16,144 nt of DNA. It comes from a virus. The notes under the pieces were generated by a model. The model was not told the DNA's origin and ran no database searches. It worked only from the letters and a program-made list of their open reading frames with translations. The translations under genes were made by a program, and so were the position numbers. The stretch is taken from the UHGV virus genome UHGV-0251712; one strand, 5' to 3'. Below are positions 1-16,144 of the stretch, piece after piece. How positions within the stretch are numbered: position 1 is the first letter of the stretch; every line of letters begins with the position of its first letter.

Positions 1-346
1 CAGCCTCTATGAACTTCGCGGCGGTTTCCTGATTCAGCTCCTTCGGGATGATATGCCCACGGCACAGCGTGCTGAAATTGCTCTGCATCCGGTTACGCTC
101 CTTCGTCGTCTTGGTCAGGTAGAGGTAGCAGGTGTGCTTCAGGTACGGACGGACGGCAAAGCCGGACTGATAGAGCGTTACTTCTCGCTCATGCCCGAAG
201 GCGACACGACCTTGCAGGACATTGACCTCTCGGCGAGGGAAATGCGCATCGGCGACAACCGCCTGTGCCTGCACACCCTGTCCGACGCGGAAGACCTGAT
301 TAAAAGCGCTCATAACACATCTGTCGGCCAGAAGGCGCGCCTCTGA
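1..346 (+). CDS. 3' part of an unidentified protein-coding gene; reading frame is open to the left window edge
   Basis: Frame of ORF 53..346 has no stop back to position 2, so the gene probably starts outside the window. Stop TGA at 344-346. No family recognised. Its last 16 codons lie inside the left arm of the 65-bp inverted repeat. Confidence 0.3.
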   Translation, partial: SLYELRGGFLIQLLRDDMPTAQRAEIALHPVTLLRRLGQVEVAGVLQVRTDGKAGLIERYFSLMPEGDTTLQDIDLSAREMRIGDNRLCLHTLSDAEDLIKSAHNTSVGQKARL

Positions 347-516
347 GTTATCCGACGGACATACCGGGAACAGTGTAATTTCCCGGCAGGAGCGAAAAAT
401 TTGAAAGGCGCATCTTACTCTTTTCGCTTTCAAAAAAAGAGTGGTCTTCGCGTCAACACACATGTCCGTCGGATAACTCAGAGGCGCGCCTTCTGGCCGA
501 CAGATGTGTTATGAGC
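298..516. repeat. Perfect 65-bp inverted repeat (arms 298-362 and 452-516) separated by an 89-bp spacer
   Basis: Reverse complement of 298-362 is identical to 452-516 when compared base by base; mismatches flank both ends. Spacer contains a smaller hairpin (ccgggaa...ttcccgg, about 364-386). Confidence 0.9.
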
Positions 517-563
517 GCTTTTAATCTTCATTACGGAGTTTCTGCGTGCGTGCCGATAAGTCA

Positions 564-1043
564 TTAAGCCCGTTTGAAATCCGGGTATACCGCCATAACC
601 GCATTGTGCATGGTACTCGGGTCGCGCTGGCATTCCTGCTCACTTTTCTCATTATCCGCCTGTTTACTATCCCGGAAAGCACCTTCCTGCAAGAGGCTAT
701 TAAAGAACTGATACCAGGGTTTAGCAAAATCATCACCGACTACACGAGCTACCGCCACCGCATACTGACCACCTGAAATTTCTGTCAAAATGACGCCCTC
801 ACTGTTTTCGGGAAGCGTAAAGTAACCCGGCACCGTCACGACGGTGTCGCAGCGTAATTTTTCGGCGGGTGTTTCATCTGGATTGTCGTAATAGACAGCA
901 ACCCACTCCTTCGGCACAATATTTTTGCTATCTACCCACATCATCAACTGCTCAAAGCCTTTCTTTACCGTCTGTTCCCACGGGCCAACGAGATGGAAAC
1001 CTGCAACGGTACGTTTCTCTTCCTGCTTAATCTCGTAGTTCAT
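564..1043 (-). CDS. sbmC: DNA gyrase inhibitor SbmC/GyrI (GyrI-like domain protein)
   Basis: Translation begins [71 protein letters not shown], which I recognise as E. coli SbmC. Position next to dacD matches the K-12 order, and a LexA box sits just upstream. The C-terminal ~40 residues were not verified. Confidence 0.8.
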
Positions 1044-1057
1044 GACGCCTCCATTAA

Positions 1058-1077
1058 TACTGTTTTTATATACAGTA
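1058..1077 (-). promoter_or_regulatory. LexA (SOS) box upstream of sbmC
   Basis: Sequence tactgtttttatatacagta fits the CTGT-N8-ACAG consensus, 15 bp upstream of the sbmC start codon; sbmC is a known SOS-regulated gene. Confidence 0.7.
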
Positions 1078-1161
1078 TAATTGCAAAATTAAAACCACAA
1101 GGAATGAGTGTTGATTATGCGAGCAGACTCGCACTCCTGCCAGTCTGCTGCAAAAGAAAGG

Positions 1162-2334
1162 TCAGGCCTTATGGTGGAAATAATCACTCAGGCGAGAAAA
1201 CATGCTGCCTTCCCCGACAGATTCCAGGGTAACCAGCGGCCAGTGCGCCACCTGTTTATCACGGTCGTAAAGTTCAATTTCCCCTACCCGCTGATGGGCG
1301 CTAATTGGCGCGGTGAGTTCTTTACCATCAAGGGTATATTTGGCTTTGATATGTGGAATTTCGGCTTTCGGTAGCACCATCCAGAACTCTTGTTCCGTTC
1401 CCAGGGCGATATTTTCTTTATCGCCATACCAGATGCGTTCCGTACCGACCTTTTTCCCACGGTGCAAAATTTGCACCGTAGTAAAGTTTTGTTGCCCCCA
1501 ACGCAGTAATTTTCTTGCCTCTTCCTCACGACCTTTTGCGCTGTCAGCACCCATTACCACTGCAATGAGACGACGCTGCCCATCTACAGCCGAAGCAATG
1601 AGATTAAACCCGGCACCAGAAGTATGACCCGTTTTCAGGCCGTCAACATTCATGGTTTTATCCCACAATAACCCGTTACGGTTTTGCTGGGTGATACCGT
1701 TCCAGGTGAGGCTTTTCTCACTGTACATATGATAAAACTCGGGCTCGCCGTGGATGATAGCACGAGAAAGCACAGCTAAATCATAAGCCGAGCTATGCTG
1801 GCCAGGTGCATCCAGACCATACACTGTTTCAAAATGCGTATCCTTGAGATGCAGCTTCTCGGCATAGTTGTTCATCATTTCAACAAACTGCCGTTGCCCA
1901 CCGGCAATATAGTCAGCCAGAGCAACACAAGCGTCATTTCCGGAATCCACAATTAAACCACGGCTTAAATCACGTACCGATACGCGATCGCCCTCTTTCA
2001 AAAACATCAGTGAAGAACCGACAAACACCGGATTATCTTTCGCCCACGCATCGCGCCCCACGGTGACAATATCGTCTGGCGTAATGCGATGACTATCGAT
2101 AGCGCGATCCACGACATAACCCGTCATCAGCTTTGTCAGGCTGGCGGGATTGCGCTGTTGATGCTCATTACCCGCGGTGAGGATCTGTCCGGTGGTGTAA
2201 TCCATCAGTACCCAGGACCCGGCATGAATCTCTGGAGGCTGAGGTGAAAAATGAATGTTTTCCGCCGCAAAACCAGACGATAAGTTAAAAACGAACAAAG
2301 AAGCAGCAATAATAAGACGGCGTTTCAACAGCAA
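1162..2334 (-). CDS. dacD: D-alanyl-D-alanine carboxypeptidase / penicillin-binding protein 6b (DacD)
   Basis: 390-aa ORF with signal-peptide-like N-terminus, SxxK motif (ASLTK), SGN and KTG motifs of class C low-molecular-weight PBPs; closely matches my recollection of E. coli DacD; adjacent to sbmC. Confidence 0.9.
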   Translation of the reverse strand: MLLKRRLIIAASLFVFNLSSGFAAENIHFSPQPPEIHAGSWVLMDYTTGQILTAGNEHQQRNPASLTKLMTGYVVDRAIDSHRITPDDIVTVGRDAWAKDNPVFVGSSLMFLKEGDRVSVRDLSRGLIVDSGNDACVALADYIAGGQRQFVEMMNNYAEKLHLKDTHFETVYGLDAPGQHSSAYDLAVLSRAIIHGEPEFYHMYSEKSLTWNGITQQNRNGLLWDKTMNVDGLKTGHTSGAGFNLIASAVDGQRRLIAVVMGADSAKGREEEARKLLRWGQQNFTTVQILHRGKKVGTERIWYGDKENIALGTEQEFWMVLPKAEIPHIKAKYTLDGKELTAPISAHQRVGEIELYDRDKQVAHWPLVTLESVGEGSMFSRLSDYFHHKA

Positions 2335-2536
2335 ACCCTCAGGAGTTTCAAATAGCTGTTCTTTTTACGGAAATACTTATGAACTGGCTGGAATAAAGTG
2401 CAAGAAAATGTGACTACCCTCGCATTTTTATCTGACATGATCTGTTGCCACTCGCTGTCAAATTGTTGCGCTAAAGCTGATTAGCACGGTGATATTTGAT
2501 ACTCTGGCAGACAGCAGAAATAACGGATTTAACCTA

Positions 2537-2584
2537 ATGATGAATGACGGTAAGCAACAATCTACCTTTTTGTTTCACGATTAC
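2537..2584 (+). pseudogene. sbcB: 5' fragment of sbcB (exonuclease I): first 16 codons only
   Basis: Translation MMNDGKQQSTFLFHDY matches the N-terminus of E. coli exonuclease I as I recall it (continues ETFGTHPALD in the intact protein). Here it continues AQHP and stops. Divergent orientation from dacD matches K-12. Confidence 0.6.
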
Positions 2585-3205
2585 GCGCAACACCCCTGAG
2601 AACCGCCATGAACAAGGGTTTCATGATTTGTGATTTTAGTTTGGTACGCAATTTGGTACACAACACAATTTTCACTTCAGCGGGTAGTCATCAAACTCAC
2701 CATAACGAGCATCGTTAATGATGTATGTGATCACCACAAACATCACATCTGGACTAGTTCCGCTTTCATGCGCAGGTATTTGTTCACGCCTCCCTTTCTG
2801 CAAATCATAAAGATGAGATTTTGGGGTTTTGGGATATCTTTTATCCGCAGTTCTCTATCCATTATGCAAACCAGTAATGAACCATCACCGTGTGATAGTG
2901 AGGCATCTGCCACGATAAGCGCAGAGAAATGATGCAGTGGTGGGCGGACTGGATTGATGAGAAGGTGGAGTGAACCACCTTAACCACTATCGAAGAGCAC
3001 AAAGCCTTGCAATCCAGTACAAAACTTTGTTTGTCTCATCAACTACCGCAAGTATCGATCGATGGAGCCTTGGATGATAGAATAAATTCGTAGCACTTTT
3101 TTTTAAAGTATCATCTCGCTCATGGTTACGTGATAGAAAAAGGACAAAATAATCTTAAATTTAAAAGCATATAAATCATACAAATAAAATTGTGGTGGGT
3201 GCGTA

Positions 3206-4204
3206 ATGTCTGATATTCGACAAAATAGAATAGAGTTAAATGAAGTGCATATAGCTCGCTCCATGGCTATATTTCTAGTTGTTTTACTTCATTCTTCAGG
3301 TGCTTTTTTTATGCAGTTTGGAGATCATTGGTGGATTGTTAATTTATACAGTTCTTTTTCAAGGCAGTGTATAGGTCTTTTTTTTCTTATCACTGGATAC
3401 CTATTTTATGAAAAAAACATAAACCCAACAGCACACCTAAAAAAAGGAGTGTCGAGATTGATAATACCATTCATATTTTGGTGGGTGGTATATTATATCT
3501 ACAATACAGAGATTAACAACAAATCATATAATTCTATATTTCAACCAAGTGAGGTACACCTTTGGTTTATGTATGCATATATTTGTATATATATGTTTTT
3601 ACCAATAATTTGCAACTCATTAAAACACATACCAACATATTACATTTTAATTATTGTAAGCATGCTTTTTTACTCAAATTCCATTGTCCCTGTAGTTGAT
3701 AAAACGATAATGAAGGTAACATGGTTTGATGTAAAACTAGTGTCTGAAAATGGGATATATATTCTTATTGGGGCAATAATAAGGAGATATAACGATAAAA
3801 TAAAAAAATGCAATGCAGTGATACCATTGGTGATTATTGTTATGTCGTGCCTGTTAACATCAATGGCATCTAGTTGGTGGTCTGAAATAACAGGCAGGCC
3901 TGAGCAGTTTTTCTTTAAAAATACATCTCCACTTGTATTAATATGTGTTATTTCTTCATTTACATTATGCATGTCATACTCAAAAATAATTAGCAAAAGA
4001 TTAATGAATTTATTTACATCAATATCAAATGTTTCATTTGGTATATACTTCGTCCATTTCTTTTTTGTTAGAGAAATTAGACTCGGGTATAATCAAGAAA
4101 ACGCATATTTCATGATACCATTGCTAACAATCATTTATTTTTTAATGTCATATTGCATATCAATAATTCTAAGCAAGATCCCTTTGCTTAGAAAAGTAAT
4201 ATAA
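3206..4204 (+). CDS. Acyltransferase family 3 integral membrane protein, probable phage-encoded O-antigen O-acetyltransferase (Oac-like)
   Basis: 332 aa, highly hydrophobic with many predicted transmembrane segments. N-terminal pattern R-x-E-L-N...A-R-S-M-A-I-F-L-V-V-L-L-H resembles the acyltransferase-3 signature. Strongly AT-rich relative to neighbours. Convergent with and abutting the tailspike gene, as in Sf6-like phages. Confidence 0.7.
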   Translation: MSDIRQNRIELNEVHIARSMAIFLVVLLHSSGAFFMQFGDHWWIVNLYSSFSRQCIGLFFLITGYLFYEKNINPTAHLKKGVSRLIIPFIFWWVVYYIYNTEINNKSYNSIFQPSEVHLWFMYAYICIYMFLPIICNSLKHIPTYYILIIVSMLFYSNSIVPVVDKTIMKVTWFDVKLVSENGIYILIGAIIRRYNDKIKKCNAVIPLVIIVMSCLLTSMASSWWSEITGRPEQFFFKNTSPLVLICVISSFTLCMSYSKIISKRLMNLFTSISNVSFGIYFVHFFFVREIRLGYNQENAYFMIPLLTIIYFLMSYCISIILSKIPLLRKVI

Positions 4205-6451
4205 TTATGGATTGTTAACCTTCCATCTTTTATCATAGTAATGCAAATATCCCTGAGACGTTAGTGTCATATGGACAATCGCTTGGGATATTTGCGCGTT
4301 CTGAAAATTAACTCTAATAAATACTTGAGTGCCAATTGTTATTTTTGATACAGATATCCCGTCAAGAGTCTTGTCTCCTTGTATTTTATTAACCCAAACA
4401 CCTGACGAAGACAAGGTTGCCTGATCCTTTCCGCTTATACTAAATATAATTTTACCTCCTGTTGCCAGTGAGGTGTTTACTCCATTTTGAGATATTGGAA
4501 TTATTGTAATTTCACCAGCAATGAAAACACCATTTTTGTATTTAGATACCTCACCTTGTTCACAAATTAAAATATCAATACATCTACCCCATGGTACTAG
4601 GATTGTTGCATTTTCAGTTTTTACTTGTGGATATACAGCTGAAACACCTGCAGATTCGAAATTTTTTGCTGATAAAACAACTCCGTCAGATCCATTTCTA
4701 AATCCCATTCCTGTATGATCACCGTATGTCCTTCCATGAGAGATGAATCCTCTTACATACTCTTCGGATACTGCGCTACCAGTGGTTTCCTTCTGAAAGA
4801 TAAATGTTTCACCAAAAGAAAAACCACGACATTGGTATTGGCTCTGATAATTTTCTGAGTTCTTAAAAAAGGAAATGCCTTTATATGCTGTTACATAGCC
4901 AGATCTAAATTGAACGGAAACAGGGGTTGTTTGTTCATCTGGAGGTAACTCCACAAAATGTGTAACATTTTGGCTGTTTGATTCCTGTAACCATACAGAA
5001 ACACCATCTATAATCATGGTTGAAAATCTACTGTTTATTTCTAACTCAGAAAAATCAAGAACATGATCACCTGTAACACCCTCAACTCCAAACCCATCAA
5101 TACTTAAAGACCTGAACTGATAGAATTTATGCGGTAACTCACAACCATCAGCTGCAATATTCATTGCGCTAGTGTACATTAATGGGTAAGGACTTATAAT
5201 TGGTTCATATGTTTCTCTATCTATTGCAGCCCCCCAAAGATACCCAACATTACAATGTCTTGCCCAGTTGGAAGAGAATGTAGTAGATGTGCCAGCCAAA
5301 CCGAAACCATAGATACAATCATATGCTTGGTTGTTTGTAACATTACTGACAAAGCATGATAAGGGAAGTGCAAATTTATAATGTAGAAATATGTTATTTT
5401 TAATATCATATTCACTACCCCCGCCAAAGGTTTGTGTTTGACCAGAAATGGCCAATGGGCTACCTGAATATTCATCGTCAGCGTTGCGAAAACACATATT
5501 CTTTACTTTAAGATTGTGCCCCCAACTTCCCATAACAAAACCACCACTTCCTGATGTATAAACAATACTTTTTTGTGGATTAATCCCATATAGATTTAGA
5601 CTAATCCCTTCCCATCTAAACTGGCTAATGTCAATTTGAGTGTTACCAATATATATAGGCTGGTCTATGAAAACAGGAAGTTTAGTTAGATAAGCTTTAT
5701 TAAGTGCTAATCCATCATTTGTTACACCTGTTAAATCAACGCCCCCCATGCTTGGCGCTCTAGGATACCCTGTGGCCTGAATAGTACTCCAGTCAATATA
5801 TGGAGCATCCATCCACGCTCCAAACATACGTGGTGTTACGTACCCCTTACCTTGAAGATCACGTTTCCAGCGTTTACCACCCACAGTGACAATGACCATG
5901 CCGTTATCATCTGCAGAAGTAGAATCTGTGAAATCGGCCACAAACAGACCACCACCAGTATCACCTGATACTGTCGGCTTCATGCCTGTAGTGTGGAAGT
6001 CGACGAAAATCTTTTGCTGATCTCGCTCAGGCTCAATTGTCCTTAACATTGCTATATCAGGGCATGTCCCGATGTATTTAAGACCGTCTTCCCCTGATAG
6101 AGATACTTTAAGCTGATCAGGATCATATTTAAGAACATTCGGAAAATAGAACTGCTGTGCACCATATGCATCATAAACAGCCATAGAATGGCCTTGCACA
6201 GTTACGAACTTGGCAATCTGTCCGTTATATACCGGATATCCAGCAGCGTTAATGATGATTGGTTGCGAAACAGGAACGCGAGAACCGTCTTCATTCTCCA
6301 CATAAACCTGAATCTGGTTTTCAGGATTTACCGGGTCAGTGTCAATTTTACCGATATAAATTTTGCCATTGGCTACGGCTTTAAAAGAACGAGCCATAGT
6401 GAAGAGTTGCGAAGGCATGCTTACCACAACATTTGCGGTGATATCTGACAT
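4205..6451 (-). CDS. P22-like tailspike protein (gene 9 homologue) with conserved head-binding N-terminal domain and divergent receptor-binding domain
   Basis: From the internal Met, [43 protein letters not shown]...VLKYDPDQ aligns with the P22 tailspike N-terminal domain ([43 protein letters not shown]). A GGAG ribosome-binding site sits 7 nt upstream of the ATG at 6449-6451. The ORF-track start at 6499 is probably an upstream extension. Confidence 0.85.
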
Positions 6452-6572
6452 TTCATTGCTCCAGACGAATGATATGATGCAACCATGATGTGATTGCATA
6501 CCGAAATGGTACTATTGAGTATTTATCCAGTAGGTTACGATGCCATTCCACCCAACTGGTGAGGCATCAAGG

Positions 6573-6833
6573 ATGTACAGCAAATACGACGAGGCGCAGT
6601 TTCACTTGAGACTTCCGCATGAACTCCACGCGAAAATTAAGCAGCGTGCGAAGATGAATAACAGGTCGCTGAACTCAGAGATAATTGCAGCGATTGAAGA
6701 ATCATTGGCTAAACAAAGCTCTGCATCTGTTTACATTGACGATGCAGAGCGTATGGCAGAACAACAATCTGATATGGTTAAGAAAATTGTCTTTGATACG
6801 CTCAAGGAGCTATATAAAAAAGACAGCAGCTAA
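6573..6833 (+). CDS. mnt: Mnt-like ribbon-helix-helix repressor (P22 immI region)
   Basis: QFHLRLPHELHAKIKQRAKMNNRSLNSEII...DDAERMAEQQSDMVKKIVFDTLKELYKK aligns with P22 Mnt (HFNFRMPMEVREKLKFRAEANGRSMNSELL...NDAERLADEQSELVKKMVFDTLKDLYKK). AAGGA ribosome-binding site before the ATG at 6573. Divergent from the tailspike gene. Confidence 0.75.
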   Translation: MYSKYDEAQFHLRLPHELHAKIKQRAKMNNRSLNSEIIAAIEESLAKQSSASVYIDDAERMAEQQSDMVKKIVFDTLKELYKKDSS

Positions 6834-6922
6834 CCATCAGTTACGGAGGATTTATGCAAAGAGATATGCTGAACATTGCGTTCTACATATTTGGTTTTTG
6901 CACGTTCCTGGTGTTTGCGAAG

Positions 6923-9316
6923 CTATTCTGACAACGCATCAGACTTGGCACCCTGAGTAAGGGCGTTAATGGCCTTTTGCGCCTGCTGCATGGCTTTCTC
7001 AAACGCTGTTGATCCGCGTGGGGTGTTTGCCATTCGGAGCATTGCATTTCTGAATGGCTCGCTCTCATAGGCGCGAGTAAGAAGTCCGTAGCTTACTGCT
7101 GCGCCAGTTGTCGCCGGGTTCATTGCCGTCCCATATCCGATAATGAACGGGATGGTTTGCTGCCCTGTTGGTGTTGTTACTGCCGCTTTTGCTGCCTGCT
7201 GAGTGGACTGAAGGTAGTTTTTCAATCCTTTCAGATAAGCGGCTTCCTGACCTTTAAATGTGATGCCAGTCTGGTTTTGCAGGATGTTAAGCTGTCGAAG
7301 GAACTGGTCAGGTGAACCACCTGATTTCTCTATCGCCTTTCCAATAATGCCATTGCGCATTTGCGCTCTTCCAACGCGACCAACTGAGTTATACAGCGTC
7401 TTAATTTCCGATTTGTTCTTGCTGAATAGCATGTTGTTGACAACTTCCGGCGTCAGGTCGCCTTTCATGAGAACATTCTTCAGCCTGGTATTCTTTAGTT
7501 TCGCCGCTTCGTCAGCGTATACGGCATTGGCCTGCTGATATTTACGGAGAGTATCGTTGCCAAGATTCTGACCAATGGCACCATTGATATCGTCTGTCAT
7601 CGCCTTGTAAACGCGCTGAATGGCAGCATCGGAACGGTTTGGTAACACTGGTCGTTCACCCTTCACGTCCATTCTGAACTGGCTGCGCAGATCGCTTAAT
7701 TGCTTCAAATCCAGATTTACCGGACCATCAGGACCAGCATTGCGAACAAGCTCATCACGATATGACTGAAGTTTTGAAATAGTCTCGTTATCAGCAACCT
7801 TACCAAGCTTCTGCAGGTTAGATATTTCTGTATCAATCTGCTGAATTGCTCGCGCAGGCTGAATGTTTACTCCAGCCATAGCATTCTGAACCTGCTCCAG
7901 TCGATTACCGGCGGCACGACGAATTCCTGATGTTTTCGCTTTAAGGCTGTCAATAACAACAGATGGATCATACTCACCGAATTTATCAGCAAATCTCTGC
8001 ACCAACTGGCTTCTCGCTTCCTGTTGCGTTGCTCTCATTCCGCTTGTGCCAGCCAGAGGAATATTTTCTGCTGTAGTCTGCGCCATTTTTCCGACGCGGG
8101 AAGTAGGCTGTAACAGGTCTGTGGTGTGCAGAGGAACTCCTTCACGCTCTGCAAATCTGATAGCTTGCTGTGCTTCTGGCGCGATAGCACCACGAACGCC
8201 ACGATAAGCAGCACCTAATCCACGTCCGGCAGCGTTAATAGCACCGCCAGCAAGTACACCAACGCCTAAATCGGTGGCGAGTGCTTCCGCATCATCTTTC
8301 GCACTATTTGCAGCAAGTGATCCAACTGCGTTTTCTGCTAGAAGGCGAGTTGCCCCCTGAGCAATTCGACCAGCAAGTGTTGGTGCCTGTGCTGCCGCTC
8401 TCTCAACGCCAGCAGGAGTGAGGTAAGGCAATGCTTCAGCAAATACCCTTCCCTCTGTCGTTTGTGGAGTCAGCGCGCCTTGCCGAAGGCCAAAGTCCCG
8501 CTCTAATCCCTGCGTTGTTACTCGTGGTGCTGGTTGATATGTACCATCGCCAATGCCGAGTTTACCGCCAGCCCAAGCCGCCGCGCTTGTTACAGCATCA
8601 GTGAGTTCAGCAGGTATGTTCGCTACGTTGATTCCTGCCTGTAGTATGCCGCGCCCGGTTTCAGCAAGTCCATTACCAAGGTCAGACATTATTCCGCCTT
8701 GCTGCTGAACAGGTTTCGGTGCGACAGAACTTACGGGTTGAGGTGGCTGCTGACTGGCTGCCTGCTGCTCAATCTGAGCAAATGGATTATTTGGGTCTGA
8801 CTGCACACCTGATGCCGATACTTGTTCGGATGACTGTACTTCCAGTTGTGCAAACGGGTTGTTAGGGTCTTGCTGAGGATGTACCTTTGCAGAGGTGGCG
8901 CGCTGTTCGACTGTTGAGTCTGTCACCGGGTCACCCGCCCATTGAGCAAAGCGATCATCAACGTAACCGCGGCCTTCAGGTCCTGGCGTATATTCACCAC
9001 GCTTTGCCTTCATAACGTTGCCGGGACCGTCGTGATAAGCCTGAAGAGCGTCACGCCAGTTACCAAACTGCTGGTACATCTTTGCCAGATAGCGCGCGCC
9101 AGCGTCAGCCTGATATTCGGGGTTTTGCATTTGCTCATCGGTATAACCCATATCACGCCATGTCCCAGGCATGACCTGAGTCAATCCTACAGCCCCGGCG
9201 GAGCTTACTGCGGCAGGGTTGTAAGAAGACTCCTTGGCACCCAGTGCAGTCATCAACCCTTCTGGCACACCGTAACGTGCGCCAGCCTGCTCTAACAAAT
9301 CACGGTAATTAGCCAT
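6923..9316 (-). CDS. Phage ejection/injection (internal virion) protein with N-terminal lytic transglycosylase-like domain
   Basis: 797 aa. N-terminus (GVPEGLMTALGAKESSYNPAAVSSAGAVGLTQVMPGTW) resembles the SLT-domain catalytic region (E-S...GLMQ pattern). Start ATG immediately follows the stop of the upstream 443-aa gene. Sits between the ejection genes and the mnt/tailspike region, like P22 gene 16. Confidence 0.65.
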   Translation of the reverse strand: MANYRDLLEQAGARYGVPEGLMTALGAKESSYNPAAVSSAGAVGLTQVMPGTWRDMGYTDEQMQNPEYQADAGARYLAKMYQQFGNWRDALQAYHDGPGNVMKAKRGEYTPGPEGRGYVDDRFAQWAGDPVTDSTVEQRATSAKVHPQQDPNNPFAQLEVQSSEQVSASGVQSDPNNPFAQIEQQAASQQPPQPVSSVAPKPVQQQGGIMSDLGNGLAETGRGILQAGINVANIPAELTDAVTSAAAWAGGKLGIGDGTYQPAPRVTTQGLERDFGLRQGALTPQTTEGRVFAEALPYLTPAGVERAAAQAPTLAGRIAQGATRLLAENAVGSLAANSAKDDAEALATDLGVGVLAGGAINAAGRGLGAAYRGVRGAIAPEAQQAIRFAEREGVPLHTTDLLQPTSRVGKMAQTTAENIPLAGTSGMRATQQEARSQLVQRFADKFGEYDPSVVIDSLKAKTSGIRRAAGNRLEQVQNAMAGVNIQPARAIQQIDTEISNLQKLGKVADNETISKLQSYRDELVRNAGPDGPVNLDLKQLSDLRSQFRMDVKGERPVLPNRSDAAIQRVYKAMTDDINGAIGQNLGNDTLRKYQQANAVYADEAAKLKNTRLKNVLMKGDLTPEVVNNMLFSKNKSEIKTLYNSVGRVGRAQMRNGIIGKAIEKSGGSPDQFLRQLNILQNQTGITFKGQEAAYLKGLKNYLQSTQQAAKAAVTTPTGQQTIPFIIGYGTAMNPATTGAAVSYGLLTRAYESEPFRNAMLRMANTPRGSTAFEKAMQQAQKAINALTQGAKSDALSE

Positions 9317-10648
9317 TTACTGCCCCAAAGATGGAAGATATCCGTAGCGATTAATGAAGTCGATTGACAGCTCGGGGTGCTGCTTCAGGTAATCTATAGA
9401 AGCCTGAGGCGCTTCCACTCGCTTGATACCGTTTTGCTGAACGTACTTACCAACCGCCTCATTACGCTTCTGGTTGAGCGTGTTCAGGATGACGCCAGCG
9501 TTGCGACGAAAGGACTCCTCGCTCTGCGAGTTCTGCAGCGAACCAACAGCCTGGTCGAGCTTTTTGCCCTCGGCATCAGAAAGTGCGCCCATGCCTCGCA
9601 TGGCCTGAACCGCTGTCAGGTATGCTTGGGATTTAAAGGTATCAAGTCGTGCCTGAGTGTCTGCAGCCTGTGAGCCTGGAACGTTGGGGATTACTCCACG
9701 TAAGCCTGTAATGCTCTTAAGTGAAGGAGAACTAACGATATCGTTCAGAGTGAACATGCTGGTTGTGAGGGTGTTGATGCCGTCTTTGTAGCCATCATTT
9801 AGCGCTTGCTGCTTCTGCTGCAACTGCTGGTTGTTGGCTGCTATGCGGCTCTGTATTTCCTGGCGCTTCAGGTCGTTAGTTTCTGCTGATAGCATCCGGT
9901 CAAGGCGCTTATTTTCGTTGTTAATGCGGTTTGTTTCTGCGTCCAGATTAATGCGCTGCTGACCTAAATTCGCCTGGATATCTTGCCCGCGCATTGTGAT
10001 TGCCTGATTCCGAGCGGCGGTTTGCGAATCCAGATCCTGACCGCGCATGGTAACCTGGCGACCCTGCATTTTATCCTGTAGGTCAAAGTATTTTTCGGGT
10101 CCGAGACTGTTCATCCCCAGGTGATCGACAAATTCGCCGAACTGCCGCGGGTTCTGTTGGTACATCTGAGCGACATCCTGAGGATTAACGCCAACACGAG
10201 CTAACTCACCGGCGTTGTTTTGCAGCCATGATTGCATTGCTTCTGGAGACGATGACGCAAGGCGTGCGCCAGCCGCTAAGGTGCCGATAGAATTACGCTG
10301 ATCTTCATCAATGAATCCCATGCCTTTACGAACGGATTCAATCTGTTCTGGATATTGAGTAGCCAACTGACGCAAAGCACCGCGATCACCAGACGCATAA
10401 GCATTAGCGTATGCCTGCTGAAATTCTTTCTGCCGCTGAGCCTGCTTTTCCTGCTGAAACACCCCCGCAATACCTGAAAGGCCTTGCAAAGCAGTCAGCC
10501 CAACATTGTTAGCGCCTGAACGCTCAATATCATTGTTCTGCCTGATAAGCTGAAGCGTATTGCCGATGTCATTTACGCTCGGAGCGTTTGAGTTGACGCC
10601 GCCGATACCAGCCAACAATCCGCCGTTTGTTCCTTGCCAAGTAGCCAT
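9317..10648 (-). CDS. Phage ejection/DNA-transfer protein (P22 gene 20-like)
   Basis: 443 aa, Q/N/A-rich low-complexity with coiled-coil character; in operon with and immediately upstream of the 797-aa protein; size and context fit P22-like gp20. Family assignment is by context only. Confidence 0.55.
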   Translation of the reverse strand: MATWQGTNGGLLAGIGGVNSNAPSVNDIGNTLQLIRQNNDIERSGANNVGLTALQGLSGIAGVFQQEKQAQRQKEFQQAYANAYASGDRGALRQLATQYPEQIESVRKGMGFIDEDQRNSIGTLAAGARLASSSPEAMQSWLQNNAGELARVGVNPQDVAQMYQQNPRQFGEFVDHLGMNSLGPEKYFDLQDKMQGRQVTMRGQDLDSQTAARNQAITMRGQDIQANLGQQRINLDAETNRINNENKRLDRMLSAETNDLKRQEIQSRIAANNQQLQQKQQALNDGYKDGINTLTTSMFTLNDIVSSPSLKSITGLRGVIPNVPGSQAADTQARLDTFKSQAYLTAVQAMRGMGALSDAEGKKLDQAVGSLQNSQSEESFRRNAGVILNTLNQKRNEAVGKYVQQNGIKRVEAPQASIDYLKQHPELSIDFINRYGYLPSLGQ

Positions 10649-10657
10649 GATTACCCC

Positions 10658-10855
10658 TTAAAACAACGAGCCAAGCAATCCGATACCAGCACCAATGCCA
10701 GCGCCCCAAGGCGTTGATGTTCCCAAAAGGCTGGCAAGACCTGCACCGGCAATCGCACCAGACGTGCCACCGCTAATTGCAGTCTGAAGACTTGATGGTT
10801 TAACCAAAGAGTAGTTGGCTTTGGGGTGACGTGAAGTGCAGCTGCACGACGGCAA
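10658..10855 (-). CDS. Small Gly/Ala-rich ORF, possibly the 3' remnant of an upstream ejection-protein gene (gene 7-like) truncated by a deletion joint
   Basis: 65-aa ORF ending 9 bp before the 443-aa gene. Hydrophobic Gly/Ala-rich C-terminus. Begins at a TTG inside the region occupied on the other strand by the ssb fragment, so its 5' end is unlikely to be native. Confidence 0.3.
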
Positions 10856-11267
10856 CCTGACAATAGCAACGTCAGAACAATGGCGAGATAAAAATACTGG
10901 CGAGCAAAAGGAATTGACTGAATGGCATCGTGTTGCTGTATCCGGGAAACTGGCTGAGGTCGTGGGGCAGTATGTGAAAAAAGGTGATCAGATTTATTTC
11001 GAGGGAATGCTGAGAACCAGAAAGTGGAAAGACCAGTCAGGGCAAGACCGTTACACAACCGAGGTTCATGTCGGAATTAATGGCGTGATGCAAATGCTTG
11101 GCGGCATTGGCGACAGCAAACAACAAGCAGCCAGCAGGCAATCACAGAAGCCACAGCAGCAATCATCACCAGCACAACACAACGAACCTCCGATGGATTT
11201 TGACGACGATATACCCTTTGCACCAGTAACTCTCCCCTTCCCTCGTCACGCTATTCACGCAATTTAA
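10830..11267 (+). pseudogene. ssb: Single-stranded DNA-binding protein gene (ssb), 5'-truncated and with a C-terminal extension beyond the DDDIPF tip
   Basis: Translation [22 protein letters not shown]...[54 protein letters not shown]...[10 protein letters not shown] aligns with E. coli SSB from about residue 30 onward. The N-terminal ~30 residues are absent (in-frame stop at 10827-10829). After DDDIPF there is no stop and the frame continues 15 codons. Confidence 0.75.
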
Positions 11268-11280
11268 TCAGGAGAAAATC

Positions 11281-11577
11281 ATGCCAGCGCCTCAGTATGG
11301 TGCGGATGACCCGCGCCGCTGTTCCGGCAATTCCGTATCGGAGGTGCTGGATAAATTCAGAAAAAACTACGACCGGATAATGTCGCTACCGCAGGAAACA
11401 AAAGAGGAAAAGGAATTTCGCCACTGTATATGGCTTGCAGAGAAAGAAGAACGAGAGCGAATTTACCAGACATCAATCCGACCATTCCGCAAAGCCACAT
11501 ATACCCACTTCCCTGAATATATCGACCCGCGCCTGCGTAATTACCGCTCACGCTATGGCTCTATCAGTAATGACTGA
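11281..11577 (+). CDS. Hypothetical prophage early-region protein
   Basis: 98-aa ORF with AGGAG ribosome-binding site 7 nt upstream; tightly packed in the early operon after ssb. No family recognised. Confidence 0.45.
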
Positions 11578-11587
11578 GGAATTTACC

Positions 11588-11755
11588 ATGAGAGGACTTG
11601 CATACAATCCCGGCATTCTTCCGGCAGAAATGATTATTCGCCAACGCGTAAAGCCAATGCCATCGAGAGAGGAATTGCTTAAGAGAAATTCTTTTCCGTC
11701 AGTAAATCAAAACAAATATCTGAATGCGATGTGGCGTAAAGGAGGCAAGCAGTGA
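11588..11755 (+). CDS. Hypothetical small protein (55 aa)
   Basis: ATG at 11588 preceded by GAGG, follows the previous gene closely, and its stop overlaps the next start. The longer ORF-track version from 11435 overlaps the preceding gene and is less likely. Confidence 0.3.
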
Positions 11756-12051
11756 GTGTATGTCTTATTGATAAACGTCGACGTGGGCAACAAATACCAT
11801 CTGTTGGAATGCCGAATCACACATGGTTTTGCGTACTTGATATCGATGGTATGGATGCGTTGGTTGACACTCGTCATTACTGCGATACCGCAACAGCTAC
11901 TCCGGCGAAAGCAAAGAAAATGGCTGCTCTGATAGAAAACTGGACTCCACCTGATGGTTGGTGCAATGGGAATGATCGAGATTGGCACGAAAAAATGAAG
12001 GGCTATATCTGCGATTTTTTACGTAAATGCAACGGATTCAGGGTGATGTGA
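11752..12051 (+). CDS. Hypothetical prophage early-region protein (GTG start)
   Basis: 99-aa ORF; GTG start 6 nt after a GGAGG ribosome-binding site; overlaps the upstream stop. No family recognised. Confidence 0.4.
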
Positions 12052-12052
12052 C

Positions 12053-12742
12053 ATGAGCAAGATTGCCTATCAGGCACTGCGTGAAAAGGCAGAGAAAGCA
12101 ACGTGTGGTGTGTGGTCGCTCGAATATGGAGAGGGCCGATTTGATGGTGATGATGCGCTAATTCATCGTGAAGTTGCTGGATATATTCCCATTTGCAGAA
12201 TTGAAGGAGCGCATCCTGAAAGCGGTTTCGATGAAGATTTCCAAATGGAACAGCAGGCCAATGCTGAATTCATCGCAGCAGCCAGTCCAGCTACCGTGCT
12301 GGCACTACTGGATGAACGGGAAAGAAACCAGCAGTACATCAAACGCCGCGACCAGGAGAACGAAGATATTGCGCTAACGGTAGGGAAGCTGCGTGTTGAT
12401 CTGGAAGCCGCAGAGAAGCGCAACGCAAAATTACAAAGCGAGAATGCATACATCCGCAACAGGTACAAAGAACTGGACCTATTAATCGGGAAAAACATTC
12501 TGGTCATGCAGGCTGCCATTATCGAATGGCAATCTACTGGCGACGCTAAAAGCGGACTGGCATGGATTTATAACACACTGTTTGGCCCAGGCGAATTGCC
12601 GGACGAATCTGAGAAAGATGCTCAGGCCTACTTTAATCGCAAAAATGAACCGATTGACGAAAAGCTTATGGAGCTTCACAAGTGGTTTTGGGAACAAAGT
12701 GAAGCCGAGCGTGTCGCTGGCATTCGCATCAAAGGAGAGTGA
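12053..12742 (+). CDS. Ead/Ea22-like family protein (lambdoid early-left accessory protein)
   Basis: 229 aa with a central coiled-coil-like segment; N-terminus MSKIAYQALREKAEK... resembles proteins annotated Ead/Ea22-like in enterobacterial prophages (recollection, not searched); position in the early-left region. Confidence 0.5.
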   Translation: MSKIAYQALREKAEKATCGVWSLEYGEGRFDGDDALIHREVAGYIPICRIEGAHPESGFDEDFQMEQQANAEFIAAASPATVLALLDERERNQQYIKRRDQENEDIALTVGKLRVDLEAAEKRNAKLQSENAYIRNRYKELDLLIGKNILVMQAAIIEWQSTGDAKSGLAWIYNTLFGPGELPDESEKDAQAYFNRKNEPIDEKLMELHKWFWEQSEAERVAGIRIKGE

Positions 12743-12743
12743 T

Positions 12744-12941
12744 ATGGATAAAAACACCACTGCTTACTGGAATCTGTCACTTGATACCGAATGCCCAAAA
12801 TGCGGTCACAATTTCGATCTGCTTTGTGACGCTGATTTCTGGGAGTTTTCTGGAGCTAAACAGGCATGTGAAGAAATAAAAGGTTACAAAACATGCTGTC
12901 CGGAATGTAACCATGAATTTAAAACAGATTTCATATATTGA
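12744..12941 (+). CDS. Small zinc-ribbon protein
   Basis: 65 aa with CPKCG...CCPEC (two CxxC pairs). ATG overlaps the Ead stop (TGATATG) with an AAAGGAGAG ribosome-binding site upstream. Confidence 0.5.
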   Translation: MDKNTTAYWNLSLDTECPKCGHNFDLLCDADFWEFSGAKQACEEIKGYKTCCPECNHEFKTDFIY

Positions 12942-12951
12942 GGCATAACAA

Positions 12952-13398
12952 ATGACCACTATTACCAAAGAACGTATTGAATTGTTCATTAAAAATCCGC
13001 TTGAAAACGGGCTTACTCGTGGCGAACAAATGGAACTGGCACGAATTGCACTGGCATCACTGGAACGCGAACTGATTCGCCACGAGCATGCCAAATGGTC
13101 TGACTCCACATTTGGCTGCGTTGGCCCCATTGGTCCACTGAAACACCTCTCAAAAGAGACACTGGAAGCCGCAGCCGAACCAGACGATCTTAGCGAGTGG
13201 GCTGATATGCAGTTTCTGTTGTGGGATGCACAGCGCCGTGCTGGCATCAGCGATGCTGAAATTACCGCTGCTATGGAAGATAAATTGAAGATCAACATGG
13301 AGCGCCAGTGGCCTGAGCCAAAAGATGGTGAGCCTCGCTTGCACATTAAAGAACTCGGCAACTCTCCGGTAATTCCGGATGGTTCGGATGATGGTTAA
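12952..13398 (+). CDS. MazG-like nucleotide pyrophosphohydrolase-like protein (DUF550-like)
   Basis: 148 aa; segments HLSKETLEAAAE and DLSEWADMQFLLWDAQRRAG resemble the paired E-rich helices of MazG/HisE-type all-alpha NTP pyrophosphohydrolases. Assignment by motif resemblance only. Confidence 0.45.
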   Translation: MTTITKERIELFIKNPLENGLTRGEQMELARIALASLERELIRHEHAKWSDSTFGCVGPIGPLKHLSKETLEAAAEPDDLSEWADMQFLLWDAQRRAGISDAEITAAMEDKLKINMERQWPEPKDGEPRLHIKELGNSPVIPDGSDDG

Positions 13399-13433
13399 CC
13401 ATTTTTGATGTAAAAACATCCTTCTCTGAGGGC

Positions 13434-13462
13434 TTGCTCCTCAATAAGTTTGGTTTTATAAT
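13434..13462 (+). promoter_or_regulatory. Candidate sigma70 promoter for the NYN gene (TTGCTC - 17 bp - TATAAT)
   Basis: Perfect -10 hexamer TATAAT at 13457-13462 with TTGCTC 17 bp upstream, in the 149-bp gap before the NYN ORF. Sequence-only prediction. Confidence 0.3.
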
Positions 13463-13547
13463 TACGCGCAATGAAGGTGGGCGGTTCGCTACTATACAAG
13501 AGGGGTGTACCCCGCGAACTTAACCCACCACCACTTTCCTCTCTACT

Positions 13548-14195
13548 ATGAATTGCAAATCAATGACCAGAAAATATGCCATCATGATCGATGCTGGTTT
13601 TTTGCGTGCAAAATTAGGCACAAAAGATAAGCCAATCGATGCGGAAGTAATCAAAGTATTTGTAGAAAAACTAACAAAAAGGCATGAACTAGAAGGCATG
13701 ATTTTGCACCGTGTTTATTATTACGATGCAGAGCCGCTTACCGGAATACAGACGCATCCGATTAGTGGAGAGAAAATTGACTTCTCTGAAACAGAAGTTT
13801 CTAAAAGAAATAAAGCCATGCTTGATGAGTTGAAAAGAACTCCTTTTTTTGCAGTAAGACTTGGAGAGACAAACTTTCGAGGATGGAAGGTTGACCCATG
13901 GGCATTAAAGAGCAGTGACTCTAAAACTTCTTCCATTAATGCCTACAATGTTAAGCCTAATGTTCAGCAGAAAGGCGTTGATATGCGTATTGCGTTAGAT
14001 ATGTCATCAATGTCATTAAAAAAACAGGCAGATATATATGCTTTGGTGACTGGTGATTCAGATTTTGTTCCAATTATAAAATTTGCTAGGAAAGAAGGCC
14101 GACAGATTTTTCTATACACACTGGGACATAGTGTCAAGCAGACGATGTATGAACATTCCGATTTGTTAGTGCCAGATACCATGGATAAATTGTGA
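13548..14195 (+). CDS. NYN-domain (PIN-like, LabA/limkain-b1-type) predicted ribonuclease
   Basis: 215 aa with NYN hallmarks: N-terminal YAIMIDAGF, central KGVDMRIALDM, and C-terminal ALVTGDSDFVPIIKFARKEGRQIF (the typical GDxDF...G block). AT-rich relative to flanking phage genes. True start may be the ATG at 13563. Confidence 0.65.
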   Translation: MNCKSMTRKYAIMIDAGFLRAKLGTKDKPIDAEVIKVFVEKLTKRHELEGMILHRVYYYDAEPLTGIQTHPISGEKIDFSETEVSKRNKAMLDELKRTPFFAVRLGETNFRGWKVDPWALKSSDSKTSSINAYNVKPNVQQKGVDMRIALDMSSMSLKKQADIYALVTGDSDFVPIIKFARKEGRQIFLYTLGHSVKQTMYEHSDLLVPDTMDKL

Positions 14196-14374
14196 TTGGA
14201 GCTAGGAATAGGTTAGCCGCGCCTTAATAGATGATCCATTCTGGCAGAAAAAGAACACAAAGAAGTAGCCTAAGTGCCCCCAACTGCATTTACACCCAGG
14301 CCCTCATTGCGGGTCTTTCTATTTACAGAGATGGCTGAGCAGAACGCCAAGAACTGACAACCTGAACGAATACG

Positions 14375-14400
14375 AACCCGCCTAGTGCGGGTTTTCTTTT
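14375..14400 (+). terminator. Rho-independent terminator (stem aacccgc/gcgggtt plus T-run)
   Basis: 7-bp GC-rich stem with 5-nt loop followed by TTCTTTT. Confidence 0.65.
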
Positions 14401-14406
14401 ATCTGA

Positions 14407-14430
14407 ACTCGCTACGGCGAGTTTTGTTTT
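14407..14430 (+). terminator. Second tandem rho-independent terminator (stem actcgc/gcgagt plus T-run)
   Basis: 6-bp stem with 4-nt loop followed by TTTTGTTTT. Confidence 0.55.
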
Positions 14431-14442
14431 ATGGAGATGATT

Positions 14443-14742
14443 ATGGCCTGTTCAACATTCAACCATTTAACGTTACAGAAATACCAGCCAGACCCTGAAG
14501 ATTTATGCTCACTGTGTGGCGGAAATCATGGTAAAGCCGCCATGATCGAATGTAAGGACAAAATCCACATTTGCCTTAATTGCGTTGATGTCCTCGTTGA
14601 TATCAAAAATGAGAGAGAAGATAAAAAGCGTAGCGAGGCTATTCGCGCATTAGATTCATGGATGCGAGATGGGTATAGTGCTGCGCAAATTTATGACTTC
14701 GCAATATCAAAAGGCGAAATACCAGGAGTGCGCATCGAATAA
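14443..14742 (+). CDS. Small zinc-ribbon protein bounded by terminators
   Basis: CSLCGG...C...CLNC cysteine pattern. Start chosen at the ATG at 14443 because GGAG lies 6 nt upstream; the ORF track starts at 14431, which abuts the terminator T-run. Confidence 0.45.
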   Translation: MACSTFNHLTLQKYQPDPEDLCSLCGGNHGKAAMIECKDKIHICLNCVDVLVDIKNEREDKKRSEAIRALDSWMRDGYSAAQIYDFAISKGEIPGVRIE

Positions 14743-14782
14743 GACGTAACCAATATTCGAATTGAAGAACTGAAAGAACACC

Positions 14783-14809
14783 AAGCCGCCTGATGGCGGT
14801 TTCTTTTTG
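14783..14809 (+). terminator. Rho-independent terminator (stem aagccgcc/ggcgguu plus T-run)
   Basis: GC-rich hairpin followed by TTCTTTTT immediately after the zinc-ribbon ORF. Confidence 0.6.
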
Positions 14810-14822
14810 CCTGGAGAATTAA

Positions 14823-14927
14823 GATGACCGATACCAGCCTGATTCCTGAGAAAGAAGTGATGAACAAGCTCGGTGTTTCATCACGTCAGACAATCTGGAA
14901 CTATACCAAACGGCACGGATGGATATA
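14823..14927 (+). pseudogene. AlpA/excisionase-family helix-turn-helix gene, 3'-truncated (34 codons)
   Basis: MTDTSLIPEKEVMNKLGVSSRQTIWNYTKRHG fits the AlpA/Xis-type HTH pattern (L-x-x-x-E-V...G-x-S-R-x-T-I-x). Intact members run about 60-70 aa. Here the frame ends WI-stop inside the 36-bp inverted-repeat copy that starts at 14917. Confidence 0.5.
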
Positions 14928-14952
14928 GGTTACTGGCGAACACATGATTTCA
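14917..14952. repeat. Left copy of perfect 36-bp inverted repeat bracketing the integrase 3' segment
   Basis: ggatggatataggttactggcgaacacatgatttca is exactly the reverse complement of 15154-15189, with mismatches immediately outside both ends. Confidence 0.9.
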
Positions 14953-15140
14953 GAAGAACGCTTGTTACACGTCTGTCCGAGATGAATGTCGAGCCTCATG
15001 TTACTGAGCGAATGCTCGGTCATGAACTTGGCGGGATAATGTCCGTATACAATAAACACGATTGGATAGAGGCTCAGCGCAAAGCGTATGAGCTTCACGC
15101 TGATAAATTGTTCTGGCACATCAGGAGCATTTCTGATTAA
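14919..15140 (+). pseudogene. Detached C-terminal segment of a tyrosine integrase, inverted relative to the rest of the gene
   Basis: MDIGYWRTHDFRRTLVTRLSEMNVEPHVTERMLGHELGGIMSVYNKHDWIEAQRKAYELHADKLFW carries the H-x-x-R and catalytic Tyr region. Its first 11 residues duplicate the last residues of the minus-strand integrase ORF. Confidence 0.8.
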
Positions 15141-15148
15141 CGCCACCG

Positions 15149-16144
15149 TTAAGTGAAATCATGTGTTCGCCAGTAACCTATATCCATCCCTCCCCTTATT
15201 CTATTTACGAATCGGTTGGCTGCAGCGATGCTGATCGGTTTGTTTATGTCTTCTCCAGGGAAAAGAACATCATTGTACGTTGTCATGGCCTTATCGAGGA
15301 AAGGCTTAATTTGTTCGAAGATTGGACGGCGGATAACATTACCCATCTTGCTATGCTCTTTCGGTACGGTCCATACGTTGTCCAGCAGGTCAAATTCTGT
15401 CTTTGTTGCCAGCCTAAGCTCTGAGAGCCTCGCCCCCCACAGCATAAGCATCTGATGAAGGAGCTTATTTGACGTAGACGCACGGCTTCTTTCAATAGCA
15501 AGCCAAATCTTAGCCAGTTCGTGATACGACAGTACCCGATCCCCTACCTCAGCGCGGGAGCCGAAGTCCCTTGGCTGGATGCTCATAATTGCGCAACTAT
15601 CTATCAACTGACGCCGCATGCACCAACTAATTGCTGATCTTAGTTGACTTAGCACCTGCCTTGCTCGGCGTGGATTATCTTTTTCTTCTTCGGTAAGCAG
15701 GTCAACCCATTGCTTAACCGTGATAGAAGATGCCGGACGATTAGGAAAGGCGTCATGCATGCGCTTCATAACCGTTGATCGGTAAAGTGCCTGGGTCTTT
15801 TCTCTGAGAGTTGTAGAGACGTAGTTGTCGAACCAGTAGTCGAGACACTGGGCGACCGTCATGGAGTTCTCCACCTTCTCTTCAAAATAAGTGCGTGGAT
15901 CCGTTCCTGAGAAATAGAGCTTTCGCAAGTCAGCAGTGATCTGTCTGGCATCCTTCAAAGACAGGGATGGGTATCGACCAAGCCCAAGTCGATTAGGCTT
16001 GCCATGCCAGCGATAGCGGTACTGGAACTGGATGACCCCCTTCGGTGAAATTCGTACGCTGAGGCCATCGGCATCAGCCACTTCTTGTGGGCCCGAATAT
16101 GGTTTACCATAAATAGTACGCAGTTTTGTGTCGCTTATAGCCAT
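15149..16144 (-). CDS. P4-type tyrosine integrase, N-terminal 330 codons; truncated before the catalytic Tyr
   Basis: N-terminus has the arm-binding pattern of P4-family integrases (GLSVRISPKGVIQFQYRYRWHGKPNRLGLGRYPSLSLKDAR). ORF ends ...GGMDIGYWRTHDFT-stop at the right copy of the 36-bp repeat. Start codon is the last 3 bases of the window. Confidence 0.8.
   Translation of the reverse strand: MAISDTKLRTIYGKPYSGPQEVADADGLSVRISPKGVIQFQYRYRWHGKPNRLGLGRYPSLSLKDARQITADLRKLYFSGTDPRTYFEEKVENSMTVAQCLDYWFDNYVSTTLREKTQALYRSTVMKRMHDAFPNRPASSITVKQWVDLLTEEEKDNPRRARQVLSQLRSAISWCMRRQLIDSCAIMSIQPRDFGSRAEVGDRVLSYHELAKIWLAIERSRASTSNKLLHQMLMLWGARLSELRLATKTEFDLLDNVWTVPKEHSKMGNVIRRPIFEQIKPFLDKAMTTYNDVLFPGEDINKPISIAAANRFVNRIRGGMDIGYWRTHDFT
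15154..15189. repeat. Right copy of perfect 36-bp inverted repeat
   Basis: Reverse complement identical to 14917-14952. Confidence 0.9.

Follow-up and report, generated by a model that had tools for sequence, protein, structure and literature searches.

A split integrase gene in a P22-like prophage remnant is most likely a strand-switching chimera rather than an invertible switch

The integrase gene (int) of a P22-like prophage remnant, carried on a 16,144-nt stretch of DNA (hereafter the window), is split by an inverted 201-bp segment that lies between perfect 36-bp inverted repeats. We regard this split integrase as most likely a technical chimera, of the type made by multiple displacement amplification (MDA) or similar, that was carried into the assembly. 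The arrangement reads as the outcome of one switch-and-return strand switch, not as the work of a recombination system, and the 16-kb window appears to be a chimeric contig in which Bacteroidales and E. coli DNA are fused. The feature probably does not reflect biology; the most that it could be is a mutation of known type in a single genome.

Anatomy of the split integrase

The two repeat arms are reverse complements at 36 of 36 positions, can pair as a perfect stem, and are separated by a spacer of 201 nt. The 36-mer occurs in the 16-kb window only as these two copies, and a chance origin of the repeat was rejected, with about 3e-14 such pairs expected in 16 kb. The features of the region are as follows, with L001 denoting the reference locus of E. 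coli O111:H- 11128.

14824-14928, plus strand: truncated AlpA-like helix-turn-helix (HTH) gene; 34 aa, comprising 32 native residues and then W-I-stop
14917-14952, plus strand: left repeat arm; new inverted duplicate of int codons about 318-329 (L001 3820 back to 3785)
14919-15140, plus strand: detached integrase C-terminus ORF; 73 aa, starting MDIGYWRTHDFRRT, with R331, H354, and Y363
14953-15153, plus strand: inverted 201-bp segment; int codons 331-392, the stop codon, and 13 nt downstream (L001 3784 back to 3584)
15149-16144, minus strand: truncated integrase ORF; 331 aa ending ...GGMDIGYWRTHDFT, comprising 330 native residues and then T-stop
15154-15189, minus strand: right repeat arm; native copy, at its place within int

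In the 331-aa integrase, Arm-DNA-bind_3 is preserved and the catalytic-domain profile is matched over 2-132 of its 172 positions, but the protein stops inside the HDFR motif, between HDF and R, and is left without R331, H354, and Y363. These residues are members of the HxxR...H...Y catalytic set, with Tyr363 as the nucleophile, and all three are found in the 73-aa ORF, which matches the final 44 positions of Pfam Phage_integrase. In its present form, the integrase of 331 aa lacks the combination of arm domain and HxxR...H...Y residues expected of an Arm-DNA-bind_3 tyrosine integrase. In silico inversion of 14953-15153 produced a single 392-aa ORF with both the Arm-DNA-bind_3 and Phage_integrase domains, and this flipped form has the arm domain and catalytic residues of the integrases of sbcB phages. 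The rebuilt protein differs from WP_001007947.1 (E. coli O111 11128) by two residues, and lambda Int aligns to it over its residues 42-364. On the other side of the repeat, the AlpA-like ORF ends at a TAG within the left arm, which leaves 32 of its 63 residues. The full-length protein gives a weak, sub-threshold match to Phage_AlpA (E 0.003), and RefSeq labels it as an AlpA-family or HTH regulator.

A preliminary description of this DNA had recognized the same anatomy, and it was borne out throughout: the perfect 36-bp inverted repeat around 201 bp, the minus-strand integrase end and the plus-strand C-terminal ORF, the absence of the catalytic C-terminus in the present orientation, and the premature AlpA-like stop supplied by the left repeat copy. 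The integrase of about 391 aa that it expected from inversion is 392 aa in our reconstruction. Beyond that description, we found that 62 bp are missing, that the left arm is a new duplicate, and that two further foldbacks with this signature lie in the window.

Comparison with the intact locus

The region corresponds to the right end of a P22-like prophage that, in E. coli, lies between dacD and sbcB. In L001, the AlpA-like gene (3425-3616, plus strand; 63 aa, helix-turn-helix, WP_000132739.1, called AlpA-family in several records) and the tyrosine integrase gene (3597-4775, minus strand; 392 aa) are convergent, with 3' ends that overlap by 20 bp, and sbcB lies directly past int. The window was mapped onto this locus by blastn, which placed the pieces and junctions as follows.

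Window 14400-14920: L001 3001-3521, forward
Window 14917-15153: L001 3820 back to 3584, inverted, 237 nt, 99.6%
Window 15154-16144: L001 3785-4775, forward
Left junction, 14917-14920: 4-nt microhomology GGAT between the alpA donor (L001 up to 3521) and the inverted int donor (L001 from 3820)
Right junction, 15153/15154: inverted donor end L001 3584 joined to L001 3785, with no microhomology

Relative to the intact locus, 62 bp are deleted (L001 3522-3583, the 3' part of alpA, which in the wild type reads TTCCGAAGCC...GGGTGGATT), 201 bp are inverted (L001 3584-3784), and 36 bp (L001 3785-3820) are doubled in opposite orientations. The 13 nt beyond the int stop in the inverted segment are normally the 3' end of alpA. 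Sequences across the two junctions are CACGGATGGATATAGG and CCGTTAAGTGAAATC. The segment gave the same inverted match to four further loci (L011, L019, L021, and L022).

Window 14917-15153 is accordingly a reverse-complement copy of adjacent ancestral sequence, the pattern expected from a template switch. The switch points 3521, 3584, 3785, and 3820 fall in the order 1<3<4<2, with a new inverted repeat around an inverted spacer; this corresponds to type 1-3-4-2 among the four-point template-switch types defined previously (PMC5453318). In the sequence of steps that we propose, copying would have passed forward through alpA up to L001 3521, jumped to the opposite strand 299 nt ahead, where it would have been primed on GGAT, proceeded backward for 237 nt (L001 3820 to 3584), and then returned to the first strand at 3785. 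Both genes are broken as a result, leaving Int without R331, H354, and Tyr363 and AlpA with 32 of 63 residues.

Because the left arm is a copy that is absent from the intact locus, the 36-bp inverted repeat appears to be a by-product of the event and not an ancestral recombination site. Tyrosine recombinases cut with a stagger of 6-8 bp, and their cut sites were rejected as the origin of a 36-bp repeat. Inversion alone does not restore the locus, since 62 bp of alpA are also deleted; it could be expected to rebuild int, but never alpA. The orientation of the segment is the least secure part of the assembled sequence, because the flipped state is also the product of one step (type 1-4-3-2) and the two states can be interconverted through the 36-bp arms.

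The surrounding prophage remnant

In the prophage element, which is a remnant, an ssb fragment and early-left genes lie immediately beside the genes for the tailspike and ejection proteins; head, lysis, replication, and immunity genes are missing from it. No complete genome with the same remnant deletion junction was found, the best cover being 65%, and look-ups of its NYN protein and of a 103-aa ORF returned mosaic relatives. Its int belongs to the Sf101 / phage 2851 / HK544 group, which integrates at sbcB via a 13-bp attP core (PMC4159516). The right end of the window shares ca. 97-98% nucleotide identity with the int and early-left regions of sbcB-integrating P22-like and lambdoid phages (Sf101, phage 2851, HK544, HK140, and APC_JM3.2). 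As in the Sf101-type module, the rebuilt Int is a 392-aa protein with Arm-DNA-bind_3 and Phage_integrase domains, encoded by a prophage between dacD and the sbcB side; unlike in that module, int and the AlpA-like gene are both broken in the window and the prophage around them is a remnant.

Search for the rearrangement in other genomes

The rearranged form was absent, in either orientation, from 559 complete E. coli genomes that carry this int. A 391-bp query across the structure reached a best single-place cover of 61%, which consists of the 237-bp block on the opposite strand; because the alternative orientation would have given 70% cover, this result excludes both states. The 36-mer was single-copy at each related locus fetched (L001, L011, L019, L021, and L022). 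Neither truncated product, the Int of 331 aa or the AlpA-like protein of 34 aa, had a record in exact look-ups. Records of the 73-aa ORF do exist, but all come from contigs in which int keeps its normal orientation and is interrupted by different lesions, as in two Logan contigs (L002 and L003) that encode int as 250 aa plus 73 aa. At the level of k-mers, 22-23-mers across the left junction had no match in genome_contigs, metagenome_contigs, or viral_contigs, and those across the right junction had none in genome_contigs or viral_contigs; no independent occurrence of the junctions was found in the scans of those collections.

Additional foldbacks and a foreign end

A repeat scan of the whole window revealed a second perfect inverted repeat, of 65 nt, at 298-362 and 462-526. 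It belongs to a foldback in the core yeeA-sbmC locus, which we mapped onto the corresponding locus of strain AST198 (L021). The left end of the window, in turn, is foreign to E. coli. The pieces involved are listed below.

1-297: foreign fragment from a Bacteroidales conjugative-transposon TraG ATPase gene, joined to E. coli DNA at 297/298
298-684: second foldback, in the core yeeA-sbmC locus, with the yeeA 5' region copied in inverted orientation at 463-684
Window 298-461: L021 1501-1664, forward
Window 463-684: L021 1564 back to 1343, inverted
Window 677-1200: L021 1786-2309, forward

The second foldback has lost 121 bp, including the sbmC 3' end. Its junctions show an overlap of 6-8 nt at about 677-684 and 0 nt at 461/462. 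The yeeA-sbmC locus is kept in 5,419 of 5,426 E. coli genomes, and 0 of the 5,419 genomes that carry it have this arrangement. Multiplying the rule-of-three upper bounds for independent origins of the two E. coli events in a single genome gives about 3e-6.

Bases 1-297 had no match when searched by megablast against the 5,426 E. coli genomes, share 91-93% identity with Parabacteroides distasonis TraG, and have a GC content of 0.59, versus 0.45-0.48 in the rest of the window. The TraG fragment is itself folded back, with 3-151 forward and 161-298 inverted, 240 nt apart, with possibly 5 nt of complementarity near 151-160. Compared with correctly oriented references, the window contains only three inverted pieces. 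They comprise five inverted jumps in all, each of which lands 99-443 nt away on the opposite strand, and two of the five inverted junctions (461/462 and 15153/15154) show no microhomology. The rest of the window consists of long intact ORFs. Each event, taken alone, is also a legitimate type of in vivo mutation, and a prophage remnant tolerates such damage.

Discussion

The recurrence of the same foldback twice more in the window, once in a Bacteroidales fragment that is fused to E. coli DNA, shifts the balance toward a technical chimera as the source of the split integrase. Taken together, the structures point to in vitro strand switching, by phi29 MDA or in similar library chimeras, rather than to an event in a living E. 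coli lineage, because foldbacks occur in the DNA of two phyla that are also fused to each other; they would thus characterize the sample or library and not one lineage of E. coli. Among chimeras generated by MDA, 85% are inverted joins with an intervening deletion, close sites are preferred, most junctions share 2-21 nt of complementarity, some chimeras are intermolecular, and the rate is roughly one per 10-22 kb (PMC1855051). The window resembles the products of phi29 MDA (Lasken & Stockwell 2007, PMC1855051) in several structural respects: all five jumps, in three places, are inverted joins between sites <10 kb apart with intervening deletions; some junctions have short complementarity (4 nt and about 6-8 nt, with possibly 5 nt at another); and unrelated DNA is joined intermolecularly where TraG meets E. 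coli at 297/298. It differs in that six junctions in 16 kb are denser than one per 10-22 kb, in that two inverted junctions lack complementarity whereas >90% of proximal MDA junctions have microhomology (PMC1855051), and in that each E. coli event goes back to the original strand and so comprises two jumps. If the structure is an artefact, chimeric molecules would have had to dominate local coverage, because the quality of the consensus is good, as judged by the long intact ORFs. Molecules or reads bearing the junctions must have existed, because the junctions share only 0-4 nt and the wild type has no inverted repeat. A De Bruijn mis-join of wild-type reads was likewise rejected, as the wild-type locus offers no inverted repeat to mis-thread.

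In vivo replication and strand switching by a polymerase in vitro would be expected to leave the same signature in the sequence. As the main rival, we weighed the possibility that the convergent alpA/int overlap of a decaying P22-like remnant was struck in one E. coli lineage, either by a staggered-break inversion or by template switching during replication (type 1-3-4-2, fork-stalling or microhomology-mediated), which inactivated both genes and left the remnant grounded, with the other anomalies, or at least the TraG end, being unrelated assembly noise. The anatomy of the junctions fits this known class of in vivo mutation exactly. As in four-point template switches (PMC5453318), the novel sequence is one reverse-complement copy of nearby sequence, and, as in type 1-3-4-2, the stretch between points 1 and 3 is lost; the copy is longer, at 237 nt versus the tens of bases typical of that study, and the locus has no pre-existing quasi-palindrome. 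Moreover, the loss of int and alpA would be neutral in an element that already lacks head, lysis, replication, and immunity genes, this int has decayed along other paths elsewhere (250 aa plus 73 aa in L002 and L003), and the consensus is clean across the rest of the window. We nevertheless consider such an event unlikely. The 16 kb contain three foldbacks, of which one sits in DNA from another phylum that is fused to E. coli and another costs a locus kept in 5,419 of 5,426 genomes its yeeA and the 3' end of sbmC; both E. coli events are without a match in any other genome or collection searched; and the TraG fusion and the recurring signature would be left unexplained. Were the event real, it would be a clean and, at 237 nt, unusually long bacterial example of a type 1-3-4-2 template switch that killed two overlapping genes together, a modest addition to known mutation types and not a new system.

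Whether the event took place in vitro or in vivo, its primary product might have had int intact, with a 36-nt inverted copy replacing 62 bp of alpA (type 1-4-3-2), and the orientation that splits int might be secondary, produced by homologous recombination between the 36-bp arms or by an assembler that misoriented the 201-bp spacer at k <=36. This is a variation on either reading and supplies no independent origin. Both orientations are single-event products in the four-point model, in which type 1-4-3-2 is the commoner (PMC5453318), the perfect arms and their 36-bp stem make the states interconvertible, and the flip yields a complete 392-aa int. Even so, we judge it distinctly improbable: it requires one step more than the direct 1-3-4-2 route, the left junction common to both states is absent wherever searched, none of the 559 E. 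coli genomes has an intact int with an extra copy of the repeat, and each of the other two foldbacks in the window is explained directly by one event. We give very little credence to the related idea that the rearrangement is real in vivo and that the 201-bp segment now flips at low frequency by homologous recombination via the new arms. If that were so, the remnant would alternate between an inactive integrase and a complete one, as a reversible switch formed by accident and observed just as it came into being, and template switching could seed intragenic invertons.

An evolved, programmed invertible segment that turns the integrase on and off has the superficial appeal that a perfect repeat pair (36/36) surrounds the segment and that inversion restores the full ORF. 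Intragenic invertons are already known, and Chanin et al. reportedly described them alongside invertible promoters. As in those invertons, which protein is made depends on the orientation of a coding segment between paired repeats; unlike in them, the repeats are not conserved, no genome searched shows a second orientation, an invertase is not evident, and a deletion is coupled to the inversion. We give this explanation almost no credence. Both repeat copies would be expected at homologous loci, but comparison with related genomes found one 36-mer copy per locus and neither rearranged orientation, with the left arm missing from 559 of 559 related E. coli loci. The event that created the left arm also removed 62 bp and destroyed alpA irreversibly. 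Among the larger ORFs of the window, Pfam scans turned up no invertase or recombinase besides the split Int, which is broken and belongs to a family that recombines at sbcB through a 13-bp attP core (PMC4159516). The element is a remnant unable to make phage, and the same type of structure occurs at unrelated sites in the window. Of the three origins listed in the preliminary description, the evidence thus favors two, a template-switch inverted duplication and an assembly artefact. The third, a locked or switchable invertible segment, does not agree with a derived left arm (0 of 559 genomes), the coupled loss of 62 bp of alpA, and the remnant state of the element. The interpretation offered there therefore stands for the anatomy and these two origins, but not for a switchable segment.

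If the split integrase is indeed a technical chimera, its significance would lie in how sequences are screened for phase variation. A flip between perfect repeats that appears to repair a gene mimics a phase-variation switch, yet strand-switch chimeras give the same picture. Two checks tell a switch from a chimera: comparison with intact homologous loci, which in this case revealed a derived duplicate and a coupled deletion, and a search for the same signature elsewhere in the contig.

Chimeric origin of the contig

The left end of the window is foreign to E. coli and is followed by a rearranged yeeA-sbmC region:

1-297, fragment of a TraG ATPase gene from a Bacteroidales conjugative transposon
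298-362 and 462-526, perfect 65-nt inverted repeat within the foldback at 298-684
564-1043, sbmC ORF with a foreign C-terminus

The TraG fragment (GC 0.59) is 91-93% identical to Parabacteroides distasonis, has no match in E. coli, and is folded on itself, with 3-151 in forward and 161-298 in inverted orientation. The fusion of this foreign, folded-back fragment to E. coli DNA at 297/298 marks the window as a chimeric contig, which probably originated from a gut sample. Just beyond the join, the 5' region of yeeA was copied in inverted orientation, which generated the 65-nt repeat, and a 121-bp stretch that takes in the 3' end of sbmC was lost; yeeA itself is absent from the window. The arrangement at 298-684 was found in none of 5,419 E. 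coli genomes.

Composition of the prophage remnant

Most of the remaining sequence is a P22-like prophage remnant, whose early-left block includes several accessory genes:

ca. 2400-16144, prophage remnant, with the late block joined to the early-left block at 10803-10853
12952-13398, dATP/dGTP pyrophosphohydrolase
13548-14195, NYN-domain protein
14431-14742, 103-aa Cys-rich ORF without a family

The late genes retained encode an acyltransferase, the tailspike, Mnt/Arc, two ejection proteins, and a truncated DNA-transfer protein. This block adjoins a C-terminal fragment of ssb and the early-left genes, from which it is separated by 51 bp. The junction is found in no complete E. coli genome; it could be either a real deletion or a further chimeric join. 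The accessory genes (12952-14742) lie immediately upstream of the alpA-like gene. The NYN-domain protein and the 103-aa ORF are present in many lambdoid prophages, beside varied integrase types. A role as moron or defence cargo is possible for these genes.

The window stops at 16144, on base 1 of the start codon of the integrase gene, and the attachment site and sbcB fall beyond it. In two Logan contigs (SRR19858370 and SRR19858372), the same integrase gene is broken into ORFs of 250 and 73 aa in normal orientation, beside an intact 63-aa AlpA-like gene. This split is an ordinary, independent route of decay for this integrase.

Similar remnants in other strains

Comparable P22-like remnants occur in the independent E. 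coli strains AST198, PSJ-16, and GPEC1292. These keep O-antigen-modifying genes, the tailspike, ejection-protein genes, early-left genes, and the integrase, and have lost the genes for head, lysis, replication, and immunity. Where the deletions begin and end varies from strain to strain. Such repeated occurrence might reflect selection for keeping the retained parts.
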